Virus record (IMG/VR): IMGVR_UViG_3300016471_001035
Coordinates: 32,001-96,000 of that record
From: a virus
Strand: one strand, 5' to 3'
Length of the DNA: 64,000 bases
Shown here: piece by piece, positions 2,804-54,578 of the stretch
Position numbering within the stretch: the stretch's first letter is position 1
Layout: each line of letters begins with the position of its first letter
The notes under the pieces: generated by a model
What the model saw: only the letters and a program-made list of their open reading frames with translations
Database searches by the model: none
Told to the model about the DNA's origin: nothing
Translations under genes and position numbers: made by a program

Positions 2804-3369
2804 GACCCTGGGTAACATTTTTTTCGCAAACTGGTACAGAGATTAATAATTTATGTAATGCTTTAGGTATATATCCGGACGCAATTATTACAAACAAACA
2901 GACTACTGATGATATTAATAAGGATTTTTTAACCATTACAACCTTTAGAACACAAAAGCTTAATAGAACAATTTTGTTCACTCTCCCTCACAAACCTAGC
3001 TTAGAGAATTATTTTGAGGTTTTAAGTAAATTTAATAACCCAGTTATAACGTTACATGGCTATTTGAGAATAATACCTAAAGAGATTTGTGAGAAGTATG
3101 AAATCTATAACCTACATCCCGGTTTAATTGACAAATACCCGTCTTTAAAAGGATTTAATCCTCAAGAGAGAGCTTTTATTGGTGGCTATAAGCATGCAGG
3201 ATGTGTTATTCACAAAGTAGTACCTGAAGTTGATGCGGGTGAAATTCTCTTAAGCCAGGGAACAAGTATAGAGGGGTTGACACTTCCACAAGTATACAGC
3301 AAATTACATAATGTTGCATTTGACTTGTGGAAAAGCTTATTTCAAGGGTATAAAATTTTAGGAAAATAA
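2800..3369 (+). CDS. PurN-like formyltransferase (DpdN-like, candidate preQ1 N-formyltransferase)
   Basis: FSQTGT, LHGYLRII, NLHPG, GCVIHKV..EVDAGEI motifs; ATGA-coupled to dpdA. Confidence 0.85.
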   Translation: MRPWVTFFSQTGTEINNLCNALGIYPDAIITNKQTTDDINKDFLTITTFRTQKLNRTILFTLPHKPSLENYFEVLSKFNNPVITLHGYLRIIPKEICEKYEIYNLHPGLIDKYPSLKGFNPQERAFIGGYKHAGCVIHKVVPEVDAGEILLSQGTSIEGLTLPQVYSKLHNVAFDLWKSLFQGYKILGK

Positions 3370-4340
3370 TGGATATATCTTTACATTACGAAAACGTTTT
3401 TTTAAAACCTAATTTTAATAATGTTAAAACTAGGGCAGAGATAAACACTGAAGTAAATTTTTTAGGTAAAGTTTTTCGCTTGCCTGTAATTCCTGCAAAT
3501 ATGAAATGCTGTGTTGATTTTGATATTTGTAACATTTTAGACTCTAGAAATTATTTTTACGTGATGCATCGGTTTGATCATGATATCTTTGGTTTTGTAA
3601 AAGATGCTAATGAAGTGTCATTTAACAATGTTTCAATAAGTGTAGGAATACAAAATAAAGATAAAGCATTAATAACTAATTTAGCTAATAGTAAGTTTAG
3701 AGTAGATTTTATTACTATTGATGTTGCGCACGGTCATCATTCAAAAGTTGCTGATCAAGTAAAATTTATTAAAGATACTCTTCCTAAGACAAGAGTTATT
3801 GCAGGTAATGTTGCTACGCGAAATGGTGTTGAATATTTAGCTGTTGCAGGAGCTGATGCTGTTAAGGTGGGTATTGGTGGGGGGTATGCCTGCACTACAA
3901 AGGATAAAACAGGATTTACCTATCCCATGTTTAGTTGTGTTATGGAATGCGCTAGCACTGAGGCGTCAAATTTTGACATACCTGTTATAGCAGATGGCGG
4001 TGTAAGATGTAACGGAGATATAGCTAAAGCTTTAGTAGCCGGTGCTAAGATGGTTATGTGTGGCTCTATATTTGCAGCCTGCTCTGATAGCCCTGCACCG
4101 GTTGTTAAGGATGTTTCTGGAAGGCGCTTTAAGCAGTACTATGGTTCTGCTAGCGTACATAATAAGATGGATAAAAAGAATATAGAAGGTACAATGAAGC
4201 TTATGGAAACAGATTCATTTACTTATGAAGAAAAAATATTAGAAATAACTCAAGACCTGCAAAGCGCTATAAGTTACGCCGGAGGTTGCAATCTTAATGT
4301 TCTTAATTTAAGTAAAGTTGGTTACGGGGTAAGATTATGA
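3369..4340 (+). CDS. guaC: GMP reductase (Bacillus-type)
   Basis: [51 protein letters not shown]. Confidence 0.9.
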
Positions 4341-5411: not shown

Positions 5412-6306
5412 CAGTAATATTTCGAAACACTTAGGTAAAGTAACCGGTTATAAGTCAACTTACGACCCTTCTCTTTTAGTCAGAGAACCGAGAATTAATA
5501 ATCGTAAGCATTTAGGTATTACTGATGAAGATGCACCTTTTGGTGGTTATGATATTTGGAACGCATATGAGGTGTCTTGTTTAACAGCTGAAGGTATGCC
5601 TATTGCTGCTATTGCTAAGATTGTATATCCATGCAAAAACCATTATATTGTTGAGTCAAAATCAATTAAACTGTATATGAATTCTTTTAATATGCAAATA
5701 TTTAAAGGTAATATGATTCAAGTATTAAACGAATTACAAAATACTATTGCAAATGACTTATCTAATTTACTTGAAGCTACTGTTAAGGTATATGTAAGGT
5801 CAGCTGCAGCGGTATCAGATGACATATATTATCCTCCAGTCTTTAATAATAAAGACTACCCTACCCTTGAAAATAATATTGATGTTACGATGATACAATC
5901 AAAATCTTACGTAGAGGATCCATCTATTTTATCCGCAATAGAGATCCCTGAAGCTAGGATACAAAGATTTCATTCTGCTTTACTAAAAAGCAATTGTAGA
6001 GTTACATCGCAACCAGATTGGGGCGACGTTTATATACATTATAAAGGTAAGTACGAAATCAATCAAACATCGCTACTACAATATATCGTTTCCTTCAGAG
6101 ACGAATGCCATTTTCATGAAGAGATATGTGAGACCATTTATATGCGCTTATTTAGATTATTTAAGCCTGAAGAGCTTGTTGTAAGTTGTTTATATGTAAG
6201 GCGTGGTGGTATTGATATTAATCCTACTAGAGCTAGTAATTATAGCTTATTAGACAAAGCTCTAATAGATGAGTTTAAATATTTTACTAAGACGGTAAGG
6301 CAGTAA
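5392..6306 (+). CDS. queF: NADPH-dependent preQ0 reductase, bimodular (E. coli YqcD type)
   Basis: YDPSLL, DIWNAYE, VESKSIKLY, LKSNCRVTSQPDWG, HFHEEIC, RRGGIDINP. Confidence 0.95.
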   Translation: MNKVLDNSNISKHLGKVTGYKSTYDPSLLVREPRINNRKHLGITDEDAPFGGYDIWNAYEVSCLTAEGMPIAAIAKIVYPCKNHYIVESKSIKLYMNSFNMQIFKGNMIQVLNELQNTIANDLSNLLEATVKVYVRSAAAVSDDIYYPPVFNNKDYPTLENNIDVTMIQSKSYVEDPSILSAIEIPEARIQRFHSALLKSNCRVTSQPDWGDVYIHYKGKYEINQTSLLQYIVSFRDECHFHEEICETIYMRLFRLFKPEELVVSCLYVRRGGIDINPTRASNYSLLDKALIDEFKYFTKTVRQ

Positions 6307-6806: not shown

Positions 6807-8330
6807 TTAGAAGTAAACCGACTGTGTTCCAGGAACGAACGGAGTACCGAGGTTCTTGAGAATAATGACGTGGTAGTAAAGATTTGCACCAAAGATGTTG
6901 TCTACTACACCATAACGTGTTAGTAAGCCAACGCGAGGAGCAAAATCATTAGGACCAATTGTTCTCTGAACCATTACCGGGATGTACGGACAATAGATGA
7001 TACCAGTGTCGTAGAATTCCGGGCCCTTGTAACCAAGGAGTGCATACTCGAGGCGTACTTGACGCGAGAAGTTCTGGGTGCCATAAGCTGTTGGCCAGCC
7101 CTGACCCTGGAAATTACCAGGAGGGATGCCACCAGTATTATAAGCTTCAGCCTGAGCTTCTGTGCGAGTATCACGGTAAACGTTGAACCTGCCACCCAGC
7201 GAACCTACTTTTGCAACACCGACGGGCTGTGTATTAACATTACCCTGTACTGGTACCCACTGGAATTCAGGGAGCATTTCTAGGATAGCGCAAACGCGAG
7301 GTGTAGCAACAACGAAGTTGGCAGAACCACGGCGATTACGTACTGCAATACGATTAGCTTCGACGATTAGTCTCTGATAGAAGTCACGATTACGTTCAAC
7401 GAGCCAGCGACCGTCTGCTGATACGGGCGACCAGATTGAATAACCTGTGCCGTAGCCAGCATTGAGTGCTGTCTGGATCATGCGAATGATCATTTCACGG
7501 TCGATTTCGGCCTGTAGCTCATACGACATAGCGTTTGTGAGCTCAGTATCGATATCGATACCGTTCATGTTCTTAAGATCCTGCTCGAGCTCAACTGACC
7601 AGCGAGCGGCGAGACGGCGTGTGCCGGCCTCGACTGCTGTCTTCTCAAAGCTTACAACGACCTGAGGAATGTTTGCATTCAACTCAAACTGGCTGAGTAG
7701 CTGTGCAACACCCTGATCCTGTGTTAGCATTGTGAAGTCGGAATTACCCGACAATTGTGGCTGCTGCGTTCCGGTAAAGCCGGAAGCGAGGAACTGATAC
7801 CCTAGCTCAGGGTTTGTCGACAATGACTGTAAGAACGAGCTAGCATACTTTGTTGTAGAGTTGCTTGCGTCGATCTTGCCATCGGGATTGTAACCTAAGC
7901 TGGTGGGTTCGTACTTATAACGGAGGGCAAAAGCAAGACCTACTGGACCGCTCATGGGCTGAACACCAACGATTTCGTTAGTGATCAACTCAGGGAACGT
8001 ACGGCGAATCATCGGGATGAGGATCTTCGGTAGACGCGCATCGCCTTGGGCGTAAGCAGCATCATTCTGTGAAGGGAACTGGTTACCGTAAGCGCCATTA
8101 TTAATAGAGCCTCCGAATACGCCAGTGTTTCCACCGACTGTGTTGCTAGCCTCAAAGCACCACTTCTCTTGGTTTTCCAAAAGGATAGCGGTGTTTAAGC
8201 GTGTGTGATCGTCTTCGATAGCGCGGACGTTATCGGAAGAGTAATCCAGAACTGGACCCCACTTCTCGAGAAGTACCTTAGCGCGTGACTCATCAATGTA
8301 AGCCTGTGTAGGACGAATTTGTTTAGCCAT
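6807..8330 (-). CDS. gp23: major capsid protein, T4 gp23-like
   Basis: LLEKWGPVL, ILLENQE, GVQPMSGPVGLAFALR, ELEQDLK, LQAEIDRE, YCPYIP, TRYG. Confidence 0.97.
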   Translation of the reverse strand: MAKQIRPTQAYIDESRAKVLLEKWGPVLDYSSDNVRAIEDDHTRLNTAILLENQEKWCFEASNTVGGNTGVFGGSINNGAYGNQFPSQNDAAYAQGDARLPKILIPMIRRTFPELITNEIVGVQPMSGPVGLAFALRYKYEPTSLGYNPDGKIDASNSTTKYASSFLQSLSTNPELGYQFLASGFTGTQQPQLSGNSDFTMLTQDQGVAQLLSQFELNANIPQVVVSFEKTAVEAGTRRLAARWSVELEQDLKNMNGIDIDTELTNAMSYELQAEIDREMIIRMIQTALNAGYGTGYSIWSPVSADGRWLVERNRDFYQRLIVEANRIAVRNRRGSANFVVATPRVCAILEMLPEFQWVPVQGNVNTQPVGVAKVGSLGGRFNVYRDTRTEAQAEAYNTGGIPPGNFQGQGWPTAYGTQNFSRQVRLEYALLGYKGPEFYDTGIIYCPYIPVMVQRTIGPNDFAPRVGLLTRYGVVDNIFGANLYYHVIILKNLGTPFVPGTQSVYF

Positions 8331-10648: not shown

Positions 10649-11724
10649 TATCCAACAAAGAACTGTGGAGGGGCAGCATCACCGAACCCAGGTGCACTTT
10701 CGTATAATTTTTTTTCTAGTTCTTCTTTTTCTCTCAATCCTTGGGAGAGCAAATCATTATAGTTTATAGAACCACCACCAAACATTGTTGTCCCCGTATA
10801 TTTACCTCTAACGTTACCTATAGCTATTTTACTTAAAGCTAAAGCATATTGATAGACCCAAGGCTCTTTAATAATATCTTTAAGTCGTTTTTCTACGTAA
10901 CAGCCAATGATACCATAAAATCTTGATCCTGAACCCGGAGTGCGGGGTTGGGGGTAAAAGGTTAGGTATTGAGTTCTATCGTCGAACGTAAAGTATCTTC
11001 TAATAGCTAAAAGCTTTTCTCTTGTTTCTAGCCAATCTTTAAGCACATACCAGCTTATTAAATCAAACCCATAATTACCCATTGCATAGCTAAAATATGT
11101 TTGTTGAGCTAATGTTTGCTCGATAGTGAATAGCGTGTTAACACCGGTAGAGGAGCCTTCTTCAAAATCAATTATGTCTACTACTTTTCTATAATCCATT
11201 ACATCGTAATCAAAACTATTATTAAATTTTACCTGTGAATTAGAAGATGGTTTAAAATAATCACCTAAAACACCATTAAAATTAATAACTGAAAGATAAT
11301 TTGTTTGTGTTAATATTTGATTTTCAAAAATACCATCTTTATATGTTGATGACAGGGTTGTCGATGTTGTAAAGTAGCTAGAGGGTATAGATGATGTTGC
11401 AACAAAAACGGTTGGTGAAGGTTCAATTGTTTTATTAAAATACGGTGTAATAGTATAAAGCAGATCTAATTTTAAGCCTTTGTTAGATTCATACAAATCA
11501 GAATCAAATACAAGATATTCTTCTGTATACCCTGCAAATTTAGCAAACATTTCACAGGCTATAGAAATATTTTCAAATAGTTGATCATGATGAATTTCTA
11601 AATTCACCATTGGTGCACCTAGTGCTCTAGAAATTCTATCACCTAATCTATTGAATGAATCTATTTTACTGTTAAGATTAGTGCTTTGAAAAGCTGTAAT
11701 TGGTGTTATAGCAGAGCAATCCAT
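10648..11724 (-). CDS. gp13: neck protein gp13-like
   Basis: RALGAPMVNLEI, WVYQYALALSK, GKY..TMFGGGSIN, C-terminal PPQFFVG. Confidence 0.88.
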   Translation of the reverse strand: MDCSAITPITAFQSTNLNSKIDSFNRLGDRISRALGAPMVNLEIHHDQLFENISIACEMFAKFAGYTEEYLVFDSDLYESNKGLKLDLLYTITPYFNKTIEPSPTVFVATSSIPSSYFTTSTTLSSTYKDGIFENQILTQTNYLSVINFNGVLGDYFKPSSNSQVKFNNSFDYDVMDYRKVVDIIDFEEGSSTGVNTLFTIEQTLAQQTYFSYAMGNYGFDLISWYVLKDWLETREKLLAIRRYFTFDDRTQYLTFYPQPRTPGSGSRFYGIIGCYVEKRLKDIIKEPWVYQYALALSKIAIGNVRGKYTGTTMFGGGSINYNDLLSQGLREKEELEKKLYESAPGFGDAAPPQFFVG

Positions 11725-11749: not shown

Positions 11750-13552
11750 TTAAGCTGCAGGTGCAGCTCCGGCGGCACCTCCTTGAGCTGGCGTACCGCC
11801 TGCGGTGGCTTCACCGCCCCCGGCGGCAGGGGCTTCAGCAGCACCACCTCCAGCCGCAGCAGGGCCTGGGCCAAACTCCGGAGGAGTTCTAGTAGCAGAA
11901 GCACCACCACCCATACCACCTCCGCCCCCAGCTTCTTGACCGGCTGCTCCTGGTGTTGTCGCGCCAAGCTCTCTCCAATTTGGCCCATTATTAGTAATTT
12001 GATCTAATTCCCATAAAAATTCTCTATCTTTTCTTAAAAATTGTCTATTAGCCATAATATCTACCTCTGACCAGCCAAGATATTTCTTCTGTGCGAACGT
12101 TTTTGAAACTAAATCACTCTGAGTAATGTTATTAAAGTTCTCTGCTTTAAGCTGGAATTTTTGATTTTCTCTTAATTCATAGAAATTAGTAGGTACATTA
12201 AACATTAAATCAATGTCTGTTTCGCGGAGCTTATATTCTTCCCAAATTTTTCTTAATTTAAGATGAGTAATAAATCCATTTTTTAATCCAGCCGCAAAAC
12301 GTTGCTGCTGGCGAATTATAAATCTTGCAAATTTAAGCTCTTCTCTAAGAATATCTGCACCATCTTTAAATACGTCTTCAACATTTAATCGGGTAACTGG
12401 AACTTTTAAAGACTTATAAAGCTTTTGTACAAAGTACATAAGGTCGGTTAGCTCGCCCAAATTTTGACCTCCAGGTAATTGAACCACTTCAGTACCGGTA
12501 GAGCCGGTGCGCTTTGCAAACCAAAAACTATCTAACATACTTTGAGGATTAAATTTTTGTACAGAAGCACCTTGGTCTGCATCATAAGTTCTTCGTGACC
12601 AATAATTTTGCATTAGCTTACGGAGGTATGCTTCTGCTTTAGGAGGAGCCATATTACCAACATCAACATTGAATACAAGTCTTTCTGGGGCTCTTACAAG
12701 CCTATAAATAACAATTGCATCTTCTATTAGAGATAGTTGTCTGTAAGCTCTACGAGCGTTTTCAATAAAAGGTAATCTGACTGTTTTTGTTTCATTCCAA
12801 ATACCAGAGTTAATATAAGTAACTTGATTTATATCCATCGGAACTAATTCAACCTTAGCAATTTTTCCAGGATTCTTAGCATCATAAATATTTTTTCTTA
12901 AAAGATAACCTCTTACAATTTGATTTTGTACATTTTCAAAAACAGGGTCTATAACATCTGAAGGAACAGTTACCACACCTAAAATACCTTCTTCAGGATA
13001 TTTTTTATGAATAATATGTTCCCAATATAGCTCAGCATCAACTAATAATTGTCTAAGATATTCCCACCCTTTGTTTTCTAAATCAAAAAAGCCAATATAT
13101 TTTTGAAATTCTTTTTTTAATTTCTCTTTTTGATCTTCTGATATTGTAGCGGTTTTAAAAAATATTTTTACTATATCACCATTATCATCTTTATTAATAA
13201 ATTCATCGCAAATCTCATCCAACGCATCAGCTACTTCAGCAAACGCAGCCATTACTCTATAGTCCATTAACCTACGGCCTTTATCAGGCTGAAGATTAGC
13301 GTACATAAAGTTGTGGTAATCTTTATTTTGCACTACATTAGCATAAAGATCATCAGTAAAGCTTAAAGATGAAGAAACCGACTGACGAGCAAGGGCCTCT
13401 TCTCTTTGTGTTCCTTTATTAAAGAATTCAGCGTACTTAGGATTAAGCTTGTTTATTTGATCTTCAATACCAAGAGACTGGTAAGGCAGTTTTGAAGATA
13501 TAAACTTTACCAGCTCTCTTCCGAACGTACTCTCTCTATTTGGGTCTGCCAT
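11750..13552 (-). CDS. gp20: portal protein gp20 with G/A/P-rich C-terminal tail
   Basis: IEDAIVIYRLVRAPERLVFNVDVGNM, LPGGQNLGE, ILREELKF. Confidence 0.96.
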   Translation of the reverse strand: MADPNRESTFGRELVKFISSKLPYQSLGIEDQINKLNPKYAEFFNKGTQREEALARQSVSSSLSFTDDLYANVVQNKDYHNFMYANLQPDKGRRLMDYRVMAAFAEVADALDEICDEFINKDDNGDIVKIFFKTATISEDQKEKLKKEFQKYIGFFDLENKGWEYLRQLLVDAELYWEHIIHKKYPEEGILGVVTVPSDVIDPVFENVQNQIVRGYLLRKNIYDAKNPGKIAKVELVPMDINQVTYINSGIWNETKTVRLPFIENARRAYRQLSLIEDAIVIYRLVRAPERLVFNVDVGNMAPPKAEAYLRKLMQNYWSRRTYDADQGASVQKFNPQSMLDSFWFAKRTGSTGTEVVQLPGGQNLGELTDLMYFVQKLYKSLKVPVTRLNVEDVFKDGADILREELKFARFIIRQQQRFAAGLKNGFITHLKLRKIWEEYKLRETDIDLMFNVPTNFYELRENQKFQLKAENFNNITQSDLVSKTFAQKKYLGWSEVDIMANRQFLRKDREFLWELDQITNNGPNWRELGATTPGAAGQEAGGGGGMGGGASATRTPPEFGPGPAAAGGGAAEAPAAGGGEATAGGTPAQGGAAGAAPAA

Positions 13553-42668: not shown

Positions 42669-45257
42669 GTGTATAGAAATGTTGCATATCTTCCTAGAGA
42701 GCAGCTTATGCGGCTATTTACTTGGGATAATGAGGGTAAAAGAGTAGCCCTTGATACAACCTATGAGCCGTACATTTATCTCGAAACAAATAATCATCCT
42801 GACTGTACTAGTATCTTTAACACCAAATTAAAGAAAAAAAGATTTAAAAATCAAGCTGAACGCTCTAGATATTTAAAAGACAATAAAATTGTAAGAGTAT
42901 TTGAAAATCTTAATATTCAACAGCAATTTTTAATTGATAATTTCTGGGAGCACAATGAAAAAGAGGATTTTACTAAACATCAAATAAGAGTTTTGTTTAT
43001 TGATATTGAGACTTACAGTCCCGATGAGTTTCCTAAACCCGACGATCCCACCCATCCCATTAATATTATTACAGTTTATGATACACTAAGAAATAAGTTT
43101 ATTACCTGGGGACTAAAAGCATATCATAAAAATATTGAAAACGGGCTATATATTTATTGTAAAACTGAGAAAGAGTTGTTATCAAAATTTTTAAGTTTTT
43201 TTACTTCTGATTATCCCGATATACTCTCAGGCTGGAATAGTGAATTTTTTGACGTACCTTATATTATTAATAGAATAACCCGAATTCTTGGTGAGGATGA
43301 GACAAAAAAATTATCACCAGTTGGTTATATTAGACCTATTATGTTCAAAGGTAAGTTTGGTAGAGAACAGGTGCACTGGCACATAGAGGGCGTTTCATGT
43401 GTAGATTACCTAGACATTTATAAAAGATTTTGCCCTACATTACGCGAATCATATAAACTTGATTCTATTGGTGAGATTGAATTGGGTGAAAATAAGATTG
43501 ATTACGGTGATACTAATCTTACTAGCCTTGCAGATGATAATTGGGAATTGTTTGTAGAGTATAATATCCAGGACGTTAATTTGCTGGTAAGGTTAGAGCA
43601 AAAACTTCAATATCTTGAATTATTAAGGATGATTGCTTATGCGGGGTTAACTACATTTGAAGGCGCTCTTGGTTCATTATCAGTAATTACGGGTTTATGT
43701 GCTATTAGAGCGAGGTCTCGTAATCAAAGAATCCCTACTTTTAATAAGGAAGTTCACAGCGATGAACAAAATGCTGGTGCGTATGTTGGTGAACCACGCA
43801 AAGGGTTTCAGGAGAATATAGTTTCATTTGACGCTAATAGTCTATATCCAAATGTTATGATAACATTAAACCTCTCTCCTGAAACAAAGGTAGGGGTAAT
43901 CACAGATAAAAATGATAAAGAAATAACTATACAGCATGTAAACGGACAAGAATTTAAATTATCACATCAAAGCTTTGTTGATTTTGTAAAGAAAGAAAAG
44001 ATAGCTATTTCAAAAGCAAAAGTTTTATTTACTCAGAAAGAAAAAGGAATTATACCGGTAACTGTAGATCATTTTTACAAGAAGAGAGTAGAGATTAAAA
44101 GACAGCTTAAACTTTTACAAAAGAAAATTATTTCTATAGAGAAAAACACAGATGAGTATAAGCAACTCAAATTGCAGATAGATAATTTAAATATTACTCA
44201 ACATACTATAAAAATCTTAATTAATACCATATACGGTTATTTCGGTAATAAGCACAGTCCCTTAGGCGATGATCAGCTAGCTGAGAGTATTACTCTTACA
44301 GGCCAAGCTGTAATTAAAGAATCTAATAGATTATTAGAAGAGTATGTAAAAAGTAAGACAGGAATGAGTAATGAAGATATCATAAAAGATACGCCTATAA
44401 TTTACAATGATACTGATAGTTCGTACATTTCTATTAAACATATCGTACAAAAAACAGGATTAAAAATGCTTGATAGTAAGGGTAAAATTACTTCTGAATA
44501 CTATAAAGAGGTACAGTCAATAGAGGACTATCTTAATAAAAATATTGTTGTCTGGGGTCAAACTGCGCTTGGTTCGCAAGATTGTAGGTTAAATTTTAAG
44601 AGAGAAGCTATAGCAGATGCAGGGATTTTTCTACAGAAAAAGAGATATGTACTTCACGTATTAGATGAGGAAGGCATACCATGCAATAAGTTTAAGTATA
44701 CAGGGGTAGAAGTGGTTAGGACTACTATGCCTGCGCCTATAAAGCCCCACGTTAAAAAGATTATTGAGACAATGTTATTAACAAAAGACCTAGCAGCTAC
44801 TAATAAAATTTTTAATGAAACTTATGAAATATTTAAAAACCTTAGCGTAGAAGATATAGCTTTTGTAATGGGCATTAAGGGGTATGAGAAATATTCATCG
44901 ATGTGTGACGGCTTTAAGACAGCAAAACATATGCCTATTCACGTAAAAGCTGCATATTTTTATAATATTTTGCTCGATAGGTTTAATACAGGTAAAAAGT
45001 ATGAAAAGATATCATCTGGAGATAAAGTAAGATATTTTTATGCTAAACAGCCCAACAAATTCGGTATATCTACTATCGGCTATAAGTATTCCTTTCCTAA
45101 AGAATTTAATGATGTGTTCGAACCTGATCACGAATTAATGTTTGAGAAAATTATTTTCTCAGTTATTGAGAGATTTTATGATGCAGTTAATTGGAAGCTT
45201 CAATCCCCAGGGACACAGGTTCAAACTGACCTTTTTGATCTACTAAAAGAAAGTTGA
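42669..45257 (+). CDS. gp43: family B DNA polymerase gp43
   Basis: DIET, GWNSEFFD, YNIQD, SFDANSLYP, KILINTIYG, YNDTDS, KKRY. Confidence 0.97.
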   Translation: MYRNVAYLPREQLMRLFTWDNEGKRVALDTTYEPYIYLETNNHPDCTSIFNTKLKKKRFKNQAERSRYLKDNKIVRVFENLNIQQQFLIDNFWEHNEKEDFTKHQIRVLFIDIETYSPDEFPKPDDPTHPINIITVYDTLRNKFITWGLKAYHKNIENGLYIYCKTEKELLSKFLSFFTSDYPDILSGWNSEFFDVPYIINRITRILGEDETKKLSPVGYIRPIMFKGKFGREQVHWHIEGVSCVDYLDIYKRFCPTLRESYKLDSIGEIELGENKIDYGDTNLTSLADDNWELFVEYNIQDVNLLVRLEQKLQYLELLRMIAYAGLTTFEGALGSLSVITGLCAIRARSRNQRIPTFNKEVHSDEQNAGAYVGEPRKGFQENIVSFDANSLYPNVMITLNLSPETKVGVITDKNDKEITIQHVNGQEFKLSHQSFVDFVKKEKIAISKAKVLFTQKEKGIIPVTVDHFYKKRVEIKRQLKLLQKKIISIEKNTDEYKQLKLQIDNLNITQHTIKILINTIYGYFGNKHSPLGDDQLAESITLTGQAVIKESNRLLEEYVKSKTGMSNEDIIKDTPIIYNDTDSSYISIKHIVQKTGLKMLDSKGKITSEYYKEVQSIEDYLNKNIVVWGQTALGSQDCRLNFKREAIADAGIFLQKKRYVLHVLDEEGIPCNKFKYTGVEVVRTTMPAPIKPHVKKIIETMLLTKDLAATNKIFNETYEIFKNLSVEDIAFVMGIKGYEKYSSMCDGFKTAKHMPIHVKAAYFYNILLDRFNTGKKYEKISSGDKVRYFYAKQPNKFGISTIGYKYSFPKEFNDVFEPDHELMFEKIIFSVIERFYDAVNWKLQSPGTQVQTDLFDLLKES

Positions 45258-45686: not shown

Positions 45687-46805
45687 ATGAGTAAAGACCT
45701 TAATAAAATATTTGCGTCACTAGATAAGCTTAATAGCGAAGCTTCTTTTTTAAACGAAAATGCACTTAGTAAAGTTGATGAGTGGTTTGATACTGGATGC
45801 TATGCTCTTAACGCTATTCTTGGCGGGAGTTGTCGCAACGGTGGCGTACCTAAGGGAAGAATAACAGGATTCTCTGGACCTAGTCAAACTGGTAAGACTT
45901 TTATTGTAAATAAGATTTTAGCTACTGCTCAAAAAAAAGGTATTACTCCCGTTATATTTGATACTGAAATAGCTATTGATGAAAATAGTACAAAAGGTGT
46001 AGGTTTGGATCCCGAAAATGTAAAATATGTGCCTGTTGACACCATTGATCAGTGTCGTAATCAAGTTAGTGCACTACTCGATAGTATTATAGAAAATGAT
46101 GCTAGAGGTAAATTTATACTTAGTATTGACAGTTTAGGCAATCTTGCTTCACAGAAAGAGCTCGATGACGTAGCTAAAGATAAATCTGCAGCGGATATGG
46201 GTCTTCGTGCAAAGTCTTTAAAGAGTATGTTTCGCACTTTAACCTTTAAGGCTGCAAAGGCTGGCGTTACAATTCTTTTTACCAATCATACGTATGATGA
46301 TCCAGCTGCAATGTTCCCAAGTCTTGTGAAGAATCAAGCCGGTGGCTCAGGCCCTGTATATATGGCAAGTATACTTGTACAGCTTGCCAAGCGCCACGAG
46401 AAGGAGGGCGAAGGTGATTCTATGGATGTAGAGGACAAGAAGCTAGCAGAAGCCAATAAATACAGCGGTACAACACTTCGTGCATTGACTGTAAAGAATC
46501 GCTTCTTGCCTCCGTTTTTAGAGACTGAAATGTATCTTTCTTTTAAAACCGGTCTTAACAAGTACAGTGGATTGCTTGGTATGGCTGCAGTGAGAGGTAT
46601 CGTTGAACAAAACGGTGCCACATACACAGTGGGGATTACAAGCGGTAAGTACAAGAAGGGTGATAAACTAGGGTATGCAAAGACTTTTGCAAAAGATCCT
46701 GCTTTCTACGAGGAATTTATTATTCCTGAGTTAGATAAGAGATTAATAGAGGAATACAAATATAATGCCAACGAAGAAGGTAAAGAAGAAGAACCTATCG
46801 AGTAG
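45687..46805 (+). CDS. uvsX: RecA-like recombinase UvsX
   Basis: DTGCYALN, GPSQTGKT, FDTE, IDSLG, ADMG, TNHTY, KNRF. Confidence 0.95.
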   Translation: MSKDLNKIFASLDKLNSEASFLNENALSKVDEWFDTGCYALNAILGGSCRNGGVPKGRITGFSGPSQTGKTFIVNKILATAQKKGITPVIFDTEIAIDENSTKGVGLDPENVKYVPVDTIDQCRNQVSALLDSIIENDARGKFILSIDSLGNLASQKELDDVAKDKSAADMGLRAKSLKSMFRTLTFKAAKAGVTILFTNHTYDDPAAMFPSLVKNQAGGSGPVYMASILVQLAKRHEKEGEGDSMDVEDKKLAEANKYSGTTLRALTVKNRFLPPFLETEMYLSFKTGLNKYSGLLGMAAVRGIVEQNGATYTVGITSGKYKKGDKLGYAKTFAKDPAFYEEFIIPELDKRLIEEYKYNANEEGKEEEPIE

Positions 46806-49755: not shown

Positions 49756-49795
49756 TTGAATTATTTATTCTTTATATTATAATAAATCAGGAGGT
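49756..49795 (+). promoter_or_regulatory. sigma70-type promoter plus strong Shine-Dalgarno site
   Basis: TTGAAT(49756)-N16-TATAAT(49778)-AAATC-AGGAGGT(49789-49795)-N7-ATT. Confidence 0.8.
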
Positions 49796-49802
49796 TATAG
49801 CT

Positions 49803-50486
49803 ATTTGCGGTATATTTGGTTCTAAAGACTTTACAACTTATGTAAAGCTTTATAAGAGCAACAAGAAACGTGGTACGTTTTCTTACGGTGGTCTACTGAT
49901 CGGCTCACATATTCACGCTGTTCTCAAGACACCAGGCACTGCCAACCTATCCAATAAGCTAGTTATAGAGTACGGTAAAAAGAGGAGAAACATTACAGAT
50001 TTTGATGTTTTTTTAGGACACACTCAAGCCCCTACATCTGAAAAAAGAACATTTTCACCAAATACATCTCATCCTTTTCAACATAAAGAATGGTTAATTG
50101 CACATAACGGGGTTTTAACAAACGATAAGGAATTAAAAAAGCTTATTAAAGATAAAAAATCTTATAACGTTGTAGATTCATCTGTTATTGCACCGCTTAT
50201 AGCTATGTTTGTTAAAGAGCTAGATGATGAGGTTGCAGGTGTTTGCAAAGCACTATCGCTACTTAAAGGTACGTTTGGCCTTTGGATATATAATCAAAAA
50301 ACTGGTAATATTTTTCTCGCACGATCCGGCAGTACAGTATTCGCAGATTTTCTATCAAACGACTTTTCTTCTTTAAAGGAAAGCGGGTTTGTCCCTCTTG
50401 ACGAAGGTACACTATACCTATTAACTAAGGAAGGGTTAACCTCCGTAGGCGTATTTAAGACTAACTCTCCGTTTTTTACACAATGA
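49803..50486 (+). CDS. class-II (Ntn) glutamine amidotransferase with ATT start codon
   Basis: ATT-TGC-GGT-ATA-TTT-GGT = (M)CGIFG; open frame through GHTQAPT, HPF, HNG, VDS into the track ORF at 50205 (offset 402 nt); 227 aa. Confidence 0.88.
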   Translation: MCGIFGSKDFTTYVKLYKSNKKRGTFSYGGLLIGSHIHAVLKTPGTANLSNKLVIEYGKKRRNITDFDVFLGHTQAPTSEKRTFSPNTSHPFQHKEWLIAHNGVLTNDKELKKLIKDKKSYNVVDSSVIAPLIAMFVKELDDEVAGVCKALSLLKGTFGLWIYNQKTGNIFLARSGSTVFADFLSNDFSSLKESGFVPLDEGTLYLLTKEGLTSVGVFKTNSPFFTQ

Positions 50487-51175
50487 AAACAGCATTTTAT
50501 TTTTGTACAAGAAATTCTAAAGCGCAAGATACTTTTGCATTTAAATCTCTTCAAAGAATTAAACTAGCTACTCTATGGGAGTTTACTATAATTTATAAGG
50601 AAAATAATAATGACGGATTAAGCTTAAATTATAATAGTGTTTTAGAAAAGCATGGTAAAGATTATGATAACATAGTTTTTATACACGATGATGTTTATAT
50701 TGACGATCTTGGAGTGGTAAATAAGCTAGAAAAAGCTCATAATGATTTTGATATTGTAGGTCTTGCTGGGGGGTTAAATCCTGAAATTAAAGCACCCGCC
50801 CTTTGGCATTTAATGTGTGGGGGGTTTAACAGCGGTAATTTGAGAGGAGCAGTAGCCCATAAATTTAATAATGATCAAATTTTTATGACCAATTTTGGCC
50901 CCACACCCGCTAGAGTTGCTATTTTAGATGGACTATTCCTAAGCGTTAAAACCGAATGTTTTTTAAAAAAGGAATTTAAATTTAATGAAAATTATAACTT
51001 CCATCATTATGATATTGCCACCTGTATTGATGCTAATAAAAACAAATTAAAGTTAGGGGTCGTCCCTATATGGGTAGTACATAATTCACCCGGTCTTCTT
51101 AATATCAACGATGCTACATTTAGCGCTAGTCAATCTATATTTTTAAGAGAGTATAGCAGTATTGATTCTGTATAA
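50483..51175 (+). CDS. GT-A glycosyltransferase-like protein
   Basis: SLNYN, FIHDDV, VGLAG, ILDGLFL, FHHYDI; ATGA-coupled to the amidotransferase. Confidence 0.8.
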   Translation: MKTAFYFCTRNSKAQDTFAFKSLQRIKLATLWEFTIIYKENNNDGLSLNYNSVLEKHGKDYDNIVFIHDDVYIDDLGVVNKLEKAHNDFDIVGLAGGLNPEIKAPALWHLMCGGFNSGNLRGAVAHKFNNDQIFMTNFGPTPARVAILDGLFLSVKTECFLKKEFKFNENYNFHHYDIATCIDANKNKLKLGVVPIWVVHNSPGLLNINDATFSASQSIFLREYSSIDSV

Positions 51176-51195
51176 TTTTAATATATCATAAGAGA

Positions 51196-52524
51196 ATGGT
51201 TAAATTAGATCTAGATTTTTTTGAGCTTATTATTGCTTATAAATCATTAACTGATGAAACCTATTTAGCTTCTGTTGTCGACCATATAAAGCCTATTTTC
51301 TTTAAAAATAAAGATATTAAAGTTATTTTTACAATAATAAGAGATTTTTATGAAAAAAGAAATGCATGTCCTACCTTAACAGAAATAAAATCGTATTTAA
51401 CTAACGATGAGCTTAAAAATTCATTTAAGAATGTTGTAACACAGTTTAATAATTTAGATAAAAATTTTAACACAGATGAATTATCTGCTAATACAGAAAC
51501 TTTTATAAAAGAAAAATCCGTATACCATACAATGATGGATGTAGTAGATGATATCAACAAAAATAGTGTCGACACTTCTAAAATTTTAGCTAAATTTGAA
51601 AAAGCTTGTAGTATATCTTTAACCACTGAAATAGGGTTAGATTTGTATGCTAATTTAGATAGAGTAATTGAAGACCTGCATTCTTCAGAAAAATATATTC
51701 CTTCTAAATGGAAATGGCTTGATGATAAAATAGGAGGTGGGTTTCTAGAATCTGGTAGAGCACTCTATTTGTTTGCAGGCGAAACAAATATTGGTAAAAG
51801 TATATTTTTAGGAAATGTAGCTATTAACATAGCTGAGCAAGGAAAGACTGTATTGCTTGTTTCTTTAGAAATGCCAGAAATAATTTATGCTAAAAGACTC
51901 GTTTCAAGTGTATCTAAAATACCATTAAGCCAATTAAAAATAGAGTCTGATTCTTTAAAAAATCAAATTAGCGAGTATTGTATTGAAAATCCAAACGCAA
52001 AAATTATTATAAAGGAGTTTCCTCCCGCAACAATTACGCCCAACCATTTAAAGGCTTTTATTAAAAAATTAATACAAAAAGGTATTAAGATAGATGCCAT
52101 AGTTTTGGATTACGTAAATCTATTACATTCGTCTATGGGTGATTCAAGCTATGAGCGTGTTAAGATTTGTACTGAACAATTAAGAGCTTTATCATATGGG
52201 TTTAATTGCCCTGTTATATCCGCTACTCAGTTAAACCGTGAGGGGTATGAAATAACTGACCCAGGTTTAAAGACAATATCAGAAAGTATAGGGTTGGCTA
52301 TGACAGGTGACGTTATTATGAGTATTTGGCAAGAAGATACAGATAAAGAACTTGGCATTATTAAAATGGGATTAATGAAAAACAGGTTTGGACCTAATTA
52401 CGGTCATTGTGCAATGAGGATAGATTATTCAACACTTACTATTACAGAAGACGAGCATATAAATGACACAGAAGCAAGCACTTCTTCAATTAGTACGTTG
52501 ACAAAATTAGCTATCGACAATTGA
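51196..52524 (+). CDS. gp41: replicative helicase gp41
   Basis: GETNIGKS, SLEM, IKEFP, LDYVNL, SATQLNR, SES, KNRFG. Confidence 0.95.
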   Translation: MVKLDLDFFELIIAYKSLTDETYLASVVDHIKPIFFKNKDIKVIFTIIRDFYEKRNACPTLTEIKSYLTNDELKNSFKNVVTQFNNLDKNFNTDELSANTETFIKEKSVYHTMMDVVDDINKNSVDTSKILAKFEKACSISLTTEIGLDLYANLDRVIEDLHSSEKYIPSKWKWLDDKIGGGFLESGRALYLFAGETNIGKSIFLGNVAINIAEQGKTVLLVSLEMPEIIYAKRLVSSVSKIPLSQLKIESDSLKNQISEYCIENPNAKIIIKEFPPATITPNHLKAFIKKLIQKGIKIDAIVLDYVNLLHSSMGDSSYERVKICTEQLRALSYGFNCPVISATQLNREGYEITDPGLKTISESIGLAMTGDVIMSIWQEDTDKELGIIKMGLMKNRFGPNYGHCAMRIDYSTLTITEDEHINDTEASTSSISTLTKLAIDN

Positions 52525-52549: not shown

Positions 52550-52846
52550 TTGTTGAATGTGAAAGGTTACGATCCTTCTGAGCAATTAACAGATTATGAA
52601 CAAACTCATTTGTTTTTATCTTTCTGTTCGTTTGTAACACTCACTAATACAAAAAAATTAAATCTTGCTAATGTTTTTATTACCCTTCTTAAGAATAAAG
52701 AATTTAGAGAGATTTTTAAAATTTATTGTGATTTAAAAAATGATTTTTCAGCTGTAAAATTTTTCTTGCAATTTGATTCAAGCTTGTATAAAAGTAAATA
52801 TATAATGAAATTTTTAAACTCAAATAAAAAGGCGCTTTTCCTATGA
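52550..52846 (+). CDS. hypothetical protein (start uncertain)
   Basis: 98-aa ORF ATGA-coupled to bS21. Confidence 0.65.
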   Translation: MLNVKGYDPSEQLTDYEQTHLFLSFCSFVTLTNTKKLNLANVFITLLKNKEFREIFKIYCDLKNDFSAVKFFLQFDSSLYKSKYIMKFLNSNKKALFL

Positions 52847-53055
52847 GCAATATTGTTAATGCTTCTGTAACTTTAGATAAGAAGAAATGTACAGATAAAG
52901 TTTATTTTGATAAAGCCTACAAAAGGTTTGCAAGAGAATTTTTAAGGTCGGGTGTGTTAGAGGATTTAAGATTTAAAAGGTGTTATTATAAACCAAGCGT
53001 GTTGCGTAAGTTAAAAAAGCAAGTTGCAAGACAGAAGTGGAAGTTTTACAATTGA
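52843..53055 (+). CDS. rpsU: phage-encoded ribosomal protein bS21 homologue
   Basis: FDKAYKRF.R...SGVLEDLR.KRCYYKPSVLRK matches the bS21 signature (ALRRFKR..GVL.E.R.R..YEKPS..R). Confidence 0.8.
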   Translation: MSNIVNASVTLDKKKCTDKVYFDKAYKRFAREFLRSGVLEDLRFKRCYYKPSVLRKLKKQVARQKWKFYN

Positions 53056-53693
53056 TTACCGAGTTTGAAAAGCACATTTATAATTCTTATTTAAAAGTCA
53101 CTAGATCAAATAGTGAACTACCTTACAAACTTAGAAAAAATTTTGAAAAAGTTGACGATAAGCTTTATGTAGCCTTAAAAAAGCTTTCTTCTTTTTTTAA
53201 GAGATACCCCCATATAAAAATAGAGGATTTTTTTCGCGCGCCTTATTCTCTTTACCCTGACGAAAAATATTTTCCAATAGAATATTTTTATTCACTTAAA
53301 GCTATAAAGTCCTATACTTTGTTTAATAAGCAACAGACAAATCTTGATCCGGATAGCGATGAACAGCTTAATAGCATTAAAAATTCATTAATTTTTATAA
53401 AAAGTTTTTGTAGAGATAATAATTTAAATGTAGAAAATTATATTTTTCACAAAACAAAAAATGAATATTCATTTATTTTGCACTTAAAAGAACATAATGT
53501 CAACGTATATACTTTATTAGGATTTAATAACTTTGAGAAAATTCTTAGAGGCTGTAACCCCGATATTACAAAATTTATTATTGGTGAGGATATATACAAC
53601 AACATCCAGGTATTTAGAACACGTCTTTATAATTCAAAAAAAGCAAGTAAAGTTGTCGAATATGGACTTAAAAAAATATTAGAAAAAGCTTGA
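53052..53693 (+). CDS. putative helicase loader (gp59-like)
   Basis: basic helical protein directly upstream of gp32 as in T4; TTGA overlap with bS21; sequence resemblance weak. Confidence 0.5.
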   Translation: MITEFEKHIYNSYLKVTRSNSELPYKLRKNFEKVDDKLYVALKKLSSFFKRYPHIKIEDFFRAPYSLYPDEKYFPIEYFYSLKAIKSYTLFNKQQTNLDPDSDEQLNSIKNSLIFIKSFCRDNNLNVENYIFHKTKNEYSFILHLKEHNVNVYTLLGFNNFEKILRGCNPDITKFIIGEDIYNNIQVFRTRLYNSKKASKVVEYGLKKILEKA

Positions 53694-53723
53694 TTAAGCA
53701 AATAAAGTTATTATTATTATTCT

Positions 53724-54578
53724 ATGAGTACATTTACCACATCGATGTTTGAAAGTATTAAGGGCGCTTTGACGAAAAATAACGAATCTACTGCTTCGAA
53801 GGTTAAAGACTATCTTCGCTGTGAAGCCGGCAACACATATACAGTTAGACTTATTCCTAATGTAAAAGACCCATCTAAGACGTTTTTTCACTATTATTCA
53901 TACGGCTGGAATAGTTTTGCTACTGGTGAGCTTATTACTGCAGTAAGCCCTACTACATGGAATCAGCGTGATCCTATTGCTGAAGAAAGGTATCGTATTT
54001 TGAGAACAGGTACAGAGAAAGAGAAGGAAAAGGCTTTGGCTATTAAGCGTAGAGAAAATTGGTTAGTTAATGTTTATATTATTAACGATCCCGTAAACTC
54101 TGATAATAATGGGAAGGTAAAGCTCTTACGTTTTGGTCGCCAGCTACATAAAATTATTATGGATGCTATTGAAGGTGAAGAAGCCGCAGAGCTTGGTCCT
54201 CGTATATTTGACCTATCTCCTAAAGGCTGTAACCTTAGAATTAAAGTTGAGAAGCAGGGTGACTACCCCACATACGTTTCATCTAAGTTTTCTACTCCTA
54301 AGGAAATAGAGGGGTTGGACGAAGATGATTATAAGAAAGTTTATAACAGCTCATTTGATCTTGAGTCATATGTTAGTGTTAAGAGCTACGAAGAGCTTAA
54401 AAATCTACTTGATGCGCATTACTATGGCACCAAGGATGTTGAAGAGGACGGCGCTGTTACTGCTGAAGTTAAAGCACCTAAGCCTTCAGTTAATGTAACT
54501 ATTAATTCTAAGAAGGCTGAGACGAAAGAGACTACAGCCGACGATCAGCAAATAGACGAATTACTTAAAGATCTATAA
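53724..54578 (+). CDS. gp32: single-stranded DNA-binding protein gp32-like
   Basis: TVRLIP, DPI, NVYIINDP..NNGKV, IFDL, YVSSKF, acidic tail DDQQIDELLKDL. Confidence 0.9.
   Translation: MSTFTTSMFESIKGALTKNNESTASKVKDYLRCEAGNTYTVRLIPNVKDPSKTFFHYYSYGWNSFATGELITAVSPTTWNQRDPIAEERYRILRTGTEKEKEKALAIKRRENWLVNVYIINDPVNSDNNGKVKLLRFGRQLHKIIMDAIEGEEAAELGPRIFDLSPKGCNLRIKVEKQGDYPTYVSSKFSTPKEIEGLDEDDYKKVYNSSFDLESYVSVKSYEELKNLLDAHYYGTKDVEEDGAVTAEVKAPKPSVNVTINSKKAETKETTADDQQIDELLKDL

Follow-up and report, generated by a model that had tools for sequence, protein, structure and literature searches.

No other ribosomal protein is encoded by viruses nearly as often as bS21, which is carried by phages with very different hosts and initiation styles (PMC6375957). 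The bS21 of the phage HTVC008M, which is 54% identical to that of its Pelagibacter host, is incorporated into E. coli 70S ribosomes, and such ribosomes translate an SD-led GFP message at ~5% of control (PMC6375957). Both phage bS21 itself and the proposal that it replaces host bS21 to favor phage mRNA have already been published (PMC6375957; PMC9723584; PMC7029224; PMC8163748). Our literature searches found no paper tying phage bS21 to leaderless mRNA and none on a leaderless T4-like phage. To our knowledge, the function of a phage-encoded bS21 has never been demonstrated.

Work on cellular ribosomes connects bS21 to the choice of initiation site. Kasugamycin 61S particles tie bS21 occupancy, anti-SD position, and leaderless translation together. 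Likewise, E. coli ribosomes without uS2 and bS21 favor leaderless lambda cI mRNA, since bS21, when present, holds the anti-SD in the exit path (PMC10491246). In F. johnsoniae, ribosomes containing bS21 do better on SD-less mRNA, and worse on strong-SD mRNA, than ribosomes that lack its C-terminal part, and Tyr54 in this C-terminal part redirects the 16S 3′ tail (PMC9976891).

Here we analyze a stretch of 64,000 nt (the window; coordinates are window positions unless given as contig positions), comprising bases 32001–96000 of a 139,594-bp IMG/VR viral contig from an uncultured freshwater phage. The contig has a G+C content of 33.5% and an estimated completeness of 66% (CheckV). It is a T4-like myovirus and a bona fide phage genome rather than host flank, since genes for a T4-type major capsid protein, portal, DNA polymerase, UvsX, gp41, and gp32 are all present. 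Pfam and PHROG searches placed the following genes:

6807–8330, − strand, major capsid protein (gp23)
11750–13552, − strand, portal
42669–45257, + strand, DNA polymerase
45687–46805, + strand, UvsX

Helicase and portal comparisons put cyanomyophages and Pelagibacter phage HTVC008M closest among cultured phages, at just 28–35% protein identity (only 30% for the portal of HTVC008M), and megablast and tblastn searches of INPHARED with the locus and bS21 as queries returned no cultured relative.

The gene of interest was examined with Pfam PF01165, PHROG 21469, PDB bS21 chains, and dN/dS:

52843–53055, + strand, divergent phage bS21, 70 aa

This ORF matches PF01165 (Ribosomal_S21) at 40.7 bits against a gathering cut-off of 27 (E 2e-10), covering positions 10–53 of the 55 in the profile; the same match appears in a whole-contig search, and the ORF also matches PHROG 21469 "ribosomal protein S21". 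Its product is strongly basic (pI 10.2; 20 K+R vs. 6 D+E) and ends in ARQKWKFYN. A profile of its clade matches the bS21 chains of many solved bacterial ribosomes (PDB; E 2e-7 to 1e-5), and alignment to solved-ribosome and metagenomic bS21s shows the core motif F-x-R...G...E-L-R...Y-K-P-S...R-K-x-K-K to be retained. An AlphaFold model contains three helices (residues 19–36, 38–47, and 51–68; pLDDT 83); in Foldseek it matches a bS21 chain of the chlororibosome best, at just E 6, the protein being very small and extended for such a comparison. Estimates of dN/dS (0.05–0.16) indicate purifying selection, based on only four synonymously unsaturated pairs. Judged by its sequence, the ORF is a functional, genuine, and divergent phage bS21 gene, in agreement with the initial annotation, which had called a divergent bS21 at this position and with this C-terminus.

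Divergence from cellular bS21 is pronounced. Among 1.84 billion representative proteins, just six reach E<1e-9, and ordinary bS21s appear only at E≥2.6e-5. The clade is carried by 82 viral contigs, with 80 related loci, and is marked by an N-terminal extension of ~17 residues, by FAR or FSR in place of the usual FKR, and by an invariant K65-W66 within an aromatic C-terminal tail. We also sought a cellular donor, and no phylum was favored in protein-library, PDB-profile, or metagenomic comparisons. F. johnsoniae Tyr54 maps to residue 64 (Q/R/K) and not to the invariant W66 in an ungapped HMM alignment that is extrapolated at this point, and a Tyr54-type aromatic equivalence in the phage protein is therefore uncertain.

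bS21 had been described as coupled inside a gp41-gp59-gp32 replication block. Its surroundings in the window, with the two promoter-like sites assigned from geometry alone, are as follows:

51162–51189, + strand, sigma70-like promoter TTGATT-N16-TATCAT, with the −10 hexamer ending 6 nt before the gp41 ATG
51196–52524, + strand, gp41-type replicative helicase, first cistron of the operon (DnaB_C E 3.8e-27; phrog_19 E 2e-74)
52550–52846, + strand, orf98, a conserved 98-aa ORF with a TTG start and no Pfam or PHROG family match
53052–53693, + strand, gp59-like helicase loader (orf218), identified by Foldseek, with a probable TTG start
53690–53717, + strand, sigma70-like promoter TTGATT-N16-TATTAT, 6 nt before the gp32 ATG
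53724–54578, + strand, gp32 single-stranded-DNA-binding protein (Pfam gp32 E 1e-16; phrog_224 E 1e-40)

Both outer members of the block, the gp41-type helicase and gp32, are borne out by these matches. The gp59 call fares differently at the two levels of comparison: orf218 has no sequence-level match in Pfam, PHROG, or PDB-profile searches, but T4 gp59 (1C1K) is the top Foldseek match of its AlphaFold model (pLDDT 88.6), over the full length (217 columns, probability 0.99, E 0.08, TM 0.40). Given this modeled fold match plus its position before gp32, it is reasonable to regard orf218 as gp59-like.

The order gp41, orf98, bS21, orf218, gp32 is kept at ~45 loci, among which gp41 identity goes as low as 59%. 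With its ATG, bS21 overlaps the orf98 TGA (ATGA), the upstream sequence reading ...aaataaaaaggcgcttttcctATG, and the bS21 TGA in turn overlaps the TTG opening orf218 (TTGA), a start that we placed there because this junction reads TAATG in more distant relatives. The gp41, gp32, and clamp starts are each preceded by a promoter-like site ending exactly 6 nt ahead of them, and there is no + strand terminator-like site between the gp41 promoter and gp32. From the overlaps at both ends, the promoter at gp41, and the lack of a terminator, we place bS21 inside a replication operon of early/middle type, as a translationally coupled internal cistron. The start of the gp41-orf98-bS21-gp59-like message is predicted to fall on the A of the gp41 ATG. 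bS21 itself is not leaderless in the window, having no promoter at fixed spacing, while gp41, the first gene of its operon, has one. Unlike Bacteroidia-type autoregulated bS21 genes, it also has no extended SD ahead of it.

orf98, which the initial annotation did not mention, is conserved clade-wide, with invariant H20 and C26, KK-x-NLAN, and a C-terminal KSKY-x-MK motif. It is equally conserved in loci without bS21, which rules it out as a bS21 partner. Its 3′ end (52793–52846) contains TAAATA-N4-ATG, with the ATG in frame with orf98; if a late promoter were used there, the message would open with a leaderless mini-ORF of 13 codons, whose end is the ATGA at the bS21 start. The hexamer occurs in 20/31 distinct bS21-plus vs. 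5/16 bS21-minus sequences (Fisher P = 0.04, relatedness ignored). However, it derives from the conserved K-S-K-Y codons, and the N4 spacing is used nowhere else in the genome. We therefore set aside an internal late promoter for bS21 as a weak lead.

The position of bS21 between gp41 and gp59/gp32 at so many loci, combined with its strong sequence divergence, would also suit a role off the ribosome, in which a small basic nucleic-acid binder has been recruited for replication, perhaps to chaperone RNA or ssDNA. This view also draws on the lack of any significant Foldseek match to bS21 chains in ribosomes, but a small helical protein is unlikely to yield such matches anyway, and the core motif contacting 16S rRNA is kept. 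The same clade is moreover found in the head/tail module of a second lineage (lineage B, below), so it is not bound to replication. We consider an extraribosomal role very unlikely.

We next consider how genes start across this genome, using 171 genes of ≥50 codons, crudely called from the first ATG, and with transcription starts inferred from promoter geometry. TTGnnn-N16-TAnnnT is found exactly 6 nt before the ATG of 17 genes, compared to 0.13 expected and 0–2 at neighboring spacings. TAAATA, the core of the T4 late promoter, is found 5 or 6 nt before the ATG at 34 starts (0.19 expected per spacing). A −10 hexamer usually occupies −12 to −7 and the T4 late box −13 to −6, and combining these positions with the N6 and N5/6 spacings predicts +1 at the first base of the ATG. 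Ahead of starts, SD 4-mers are no commoner than background (17% vs. 17.8% in one scan, 12% in a stricter window), no G peak is present upstream of the 171 starts, and SD 5-mers are near chance (12 genes vs. ~8.5 expected). The genes divide into these classes:

65/171 genes, leaderless-type geometry
41/171 genes, start overlapping or abutting an upstream stop
4/171 genes, SD 5-mer, outside the two other classes

The remaining genes mostly have GTG or TTG starts that the gene caller missed. As a pattern in the DNA, the genome-wide SD-free, leaderless-type promoter-to-start geometry is real, and the earlier premise of a leaderless genome holds in this geometric sense.

Two genes had been singled out as SD-bearing, regulated outputs, gat and gp23. 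gat, an amidotransferase-like ORF whose protein begins I-C-G-I-F-G, indeed opens with AGGAGG-N8-ATT-TGC-GGT (49773–49805), and a TATAAT box lies so near upstream of this SD that the message is predicted to start at or just before it. gp23 has just a GGAG, 13 nt upstream of its ATG. With SD 5-mers at about chance frequency, the idea of gat and gp23 as SD-regulated outputs is weak, though the gat site itself stands.

The strongest leaderless geometry belongs to early genes. A cluster of small early genes before the window (contig ~2180–9000) has TTGACT-N16-TATAAT-N6, mostly followed by ATGATG, so that the predicted 5′ end carries the start codon twice. Such early messages, and the message for bS21 itself, would be read before any phage bS21 exists, which implies that host ribosomes already handle leaderless starts. 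If unmodified host ribosomes handle them, phage bS21 could at most enhance such starts or shut off competitors. Two further genes have a GTG exactly 6 nt after TTGAnn-N16-TAnnAT, the clamp gene (55007) and one at contig position 126049 (window coordinate 94049, past the window end). E. coli makes poor use of leaderless GUG starts, and these two leaderless-type GTG starts may inform on the initiation machinery of the host.

Other clues to the host come from the contig itself. Its sole tRNA gene (contig 10751–10825, before the window) has anticodon CAT, a paired 1:72, and no anticodon-stem G-C run; it is therefore not an initiator and should be of the elongator Met or tRNA-Ile2 (lysidine) type. 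We tried to trace the host through this gene, but its 25-nt anticodon-arm word gave only partial matches, scattered over CPR, Planctomycetota, and Verrucomicrobiota MAGs. The phage lacks the hallmark genes WhiB and psbA. Its early promoters are of the TTGACx-N16-TATAAT type, and Bacteroidota promoters are of the −33/−7 type, which argues against a Bacteroidota host.

If bS21 and leaderless-type geometry were functionally linked, the two might be expected to vary together among relatives. The bS21 clade recurs at 45–57% identity in lineage B, where the gene lies beside the portal and a gp3-like tail sheath stabilizer in the head/tail module, under its own late-type promoter TAAATA-N5-ATG (for example in G016, 229.7 kb and 100% complete by CheckV), and lineage B shares the genome-wide leaderless-type geometry. 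On a gp41+gp32 tree, bS21 has left the replication-block site at least four times, and sister pairs with and without bS21 at the block exist (e.g., L122/L124 vs. L126/L128). Most clade contigs are fragments. Even unfiltered HMMER found no bS21 in G004, a 98-kb contig that spans both known sites, or in G001 (76 kb), both contigs being incomplete, so that a copy elsewhere is possible. G004 has TAAATA at N5/6 in 15/109 genes and SD 4-mers at 3%; G001 has them at 18/66 genes and 11%, respectively. By this comparison of sequences, the leaderless-type, SD-free layout in the clade shows no dependence on bS21.

The same question can be put across phages, and the initial annotation had proposed testing whether bS21 presence correlates with leaderless geometry. 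The bS21-bearing phages compared include pelagiphages and an OM43 phage, and IMG/VR was scanned with a closer bS21 alignment, a generic one being too diverse for scanning:

HTVC008M, bS21 present, SD 4-mers 46%, 12 late genes with TAAATA-N5-ATG and a sharp N5 peak
Mosig, bS21 present, SD 4-mers 45%, 6 genes with TAAATA-N5-ATG
Melnitz, bS21 present, SD 4-mers 52%, 3 genes of leaderless type
Kolga, bS21 present, SD 4-mers 67%, no leaderless-type geometry
PA5oct, bS21 present, SD 4-mers 35%, no leaderless-type geometry
22 other bS21-bearing IMG/VR contigs, SD 4-mers 45% pooled (background ~7%), TAnnnT at 5–7 nt not enriched
T4, KVP40, Syn9, and S-MbCM100, bS21 absent, SD 4-mers 23–55%, no leaderless-type geometry
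P-SSM2, bS21 absent, SD 4-mers 23%, 5 genes of leaderless type

With 35–67% SD 4-mers and little or no leaderless-type geometry among the bS21 carriers, carrying bS21 is, at the level of these sequence signatures, no predictor of an SD-free or leaderless genome. A trend between bS21 and geometry is left among T4-like phages only, where it is weak, resting on ~2 independent bS21-plus and 3 bS21-minus lineages. TAAATA-type starts of HTVC008M (NC_020484) include those at 6280, 7562, 11972, 19456, and 49760, and the motif shared with Mosig (MT647606) is (A/T)ATAAATA-N5-ATG. These sites look like T4-type late promoters giving leaderless messages; late promoters had been sought without success in pelagimyophages (PMC7029224).

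These comparisons weigh on the model with which we started, in which phage bS21 makes ribosomes into specialists for leaderless mRNA at the expense of host messages led by an SD, and those phage genes that bear an SD are regulated outputs. Co-occurrence of bS21 and genome-wide geometry in two lineages of the clade is consistent with it, as are the TAAATA-N5-ATG of the lineage B bS21 gene itself and the leaderless-type late genes of bS21-bearing pelagimyophages, the sole other T4-like phages with such late genes (12 in HTVC008M, 6 in Mosig) vs. none in T4, KVP40, Syn9, and S-MbCM100. However, early leaderless messages and the bS21 message would have to be translated by ribosomes not yet modified, the geometry persists in relatives with no detectable bS21, Kolga, PA5oct, Melnitz, and the 22 contigs use SD sites, and the SD of gp23 is doubtful. 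In E. coli, moreover, it is loss and not gain of bS21 that favors leaderless mRNA (PMC10491246), so the model requires phage bS21 to act unlike canonical bS21. The proposed bS21-driven shift from SD-led host mRNA to leaderless phage mRNA is thus not supported by these comparisons and is partly contradicted by SD-using bS21 phages and by leaderless-type relatives with no detectable bS21, and we consider this strong form improbable.

The main rival to the reading that we prefer (below) is simpler. bS21 is loosely bound, assembles late, and is exchangeable, and a phage might top it up as a nonselective spare part during infection, for example when host synthesis has stopped or host bS21 is degraded, with no preference among mRNAs. 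Such a role would fit the status of bS21 as the commonest viral ribosomal protein across hosts and initiation styles (PMC6375957), SD-using phages included. It would also fit its dispensability within the clade and its varying position and timing, in a replication operon here and under a late promoter in lineage B. On the other hand, a protein so far from any cellular bS21, with its own conserved N-terminal extension and KW-aromatic tail, is unexpected for a simple copy of the host protein. We regard the spare-part explanation as possible but on balance unlikely.

Our preferred reading, held tentatively and put at a little short of an even chance, is that phage bS21 is an accessory ribosome-tuning protein that favors SD-independent initiation. 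In this reading, the early/middle-type gp41 promoter would drive bS21 along with the replication genes, and translation of bS21 would be coupled to orf98 through the ATGA. Like other virus-encoded bS21, it would then join the host 30S by taking the exchangeable bS21 position, adjacent to the 16S rRNA 3′ tail. From this position it may tune initiation toward SD-independent starts, that is, leaderless first cistrons and the overlapping, coupled cistrons downstream, probably by keeping the anti-SD tail unavailable, in the manner of Bacteroidia bS21. Its role would be that of an accessory enhancer or an aid to host shutoff, and not of a factor that enables leaderless translation. This tuning role is supported by the identity of the protein, the selection on it, its conserved position and its persistence after relocation in lineage B, the operon layout, the SD-free genome, the invariant K65-W66 and aromatic tail of its C-terminal helix, and the HTVC008M and F. 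johnsoniae data. It is weakened by the departures from the replication-block site, by geometry that persists without detectable bS21, by the extrapolated alignment of Tyr54 to residue 64 and not to W66, and by the full SD of gat. Since other bS21-encoding phages use SD sites, phage bS21 is in general no anti-SD device.

A more specific and distinctly speculative possibility, which we think has little chance of being right, is that this bS21, in which the KW-aromatic C-terminal helix is invariant, evolved in phages as an "anti-SD clamp". At the bS21 site of an SD-using host, it would pin the 16S 3′ tail off the mRNA exit channel, shutting off SD-led host translation and clearing the channel for leaderless and coupled phage messages. 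Some 26–29 kb before the window, at contig 3180–3370 and 5430–5615 (− strand), we also observed early-type promoters (TTGACA-N16-TATACT and TTGACC-N16-TACAAT), each followed after 6 nt by a conserved noncoding start, ACCACCTTAAG...GGC(C/A)GGAGGGGGGAG. The G-rich, super-SD-like early RNA could pair with the 16S anti-SD and, if so, would be relevant to shutoff of host translation; the anti-SD clamp may act jointly with such RNAs. If true, the clamp would be a natural and transferable specialization of the ribosome by the swap of a single protein.

Whichever role applies, the clade is an unusually clean setting, in which nearly all phage starts are SD-independent and the bS21 is unlike cellular ones, and it offers relatives with bS21 in the replication operon, under a late promoter, or without a detectable copy. 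More surprising than bS21 is that a T4-like clade has leaderless-type promoter geometry genome-wide, and this geometry does not appear to depend on bS21.

Comparison with the described systems places these results as follows. The uS2/bS21-deficient ribosomes of E. coli share the theme of bS21 occupancy, the anti-SD, and leaderless initiation, but the direction is opposite, as absence of bS21 helps there and the phage adds it. F. johnsoniae bS21 (McNutt et al. 2023, PMC9976891) provides the working model, in which an aromatic C-terminal part makes ribosomes SD-blind and better on SD-less mRNA; it differs in that the phage gene lacks an extended SD, a residue equivalent to Tyr54 is uncertain, and the pocket partners bS18 and bS6 would be those of the host. 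The freshwater, putatively Bacteroidota-infecting lake phages of Chen et al. 2022 (PMC9723584) likewise have a conserved bS21 C-terminus with an aromatic residue, and their "late-stage" bS21 picture matches lineage B, with its head/tail genes and late-type promoter. In contrast, the phage of the window has bS21 in a replication operon with an early/middle-type promoter, and its clade resembles no particular phylum, whereas the bS21s of those phages resemble Flavobacteriia bS21. HTVC008M (Mizuno et al. 2019, PMC6375957), like the phage described here, is a lytic aquatic T4-like myovirus of >130 kb with a bS21 under purifying selection and a proposed replacement of host bS21, and it too has TAAATA-N5-ATG, at a minority of its late genes. 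However, its bS21 is host-like (65.7 Pfam bits) and its genome uses SD sites (46%), while the bS21 studied here scores 40.7 bits and has no close cellular relative, in a genome with no SD signal. The gene is a further, divergent example of this published gene class.
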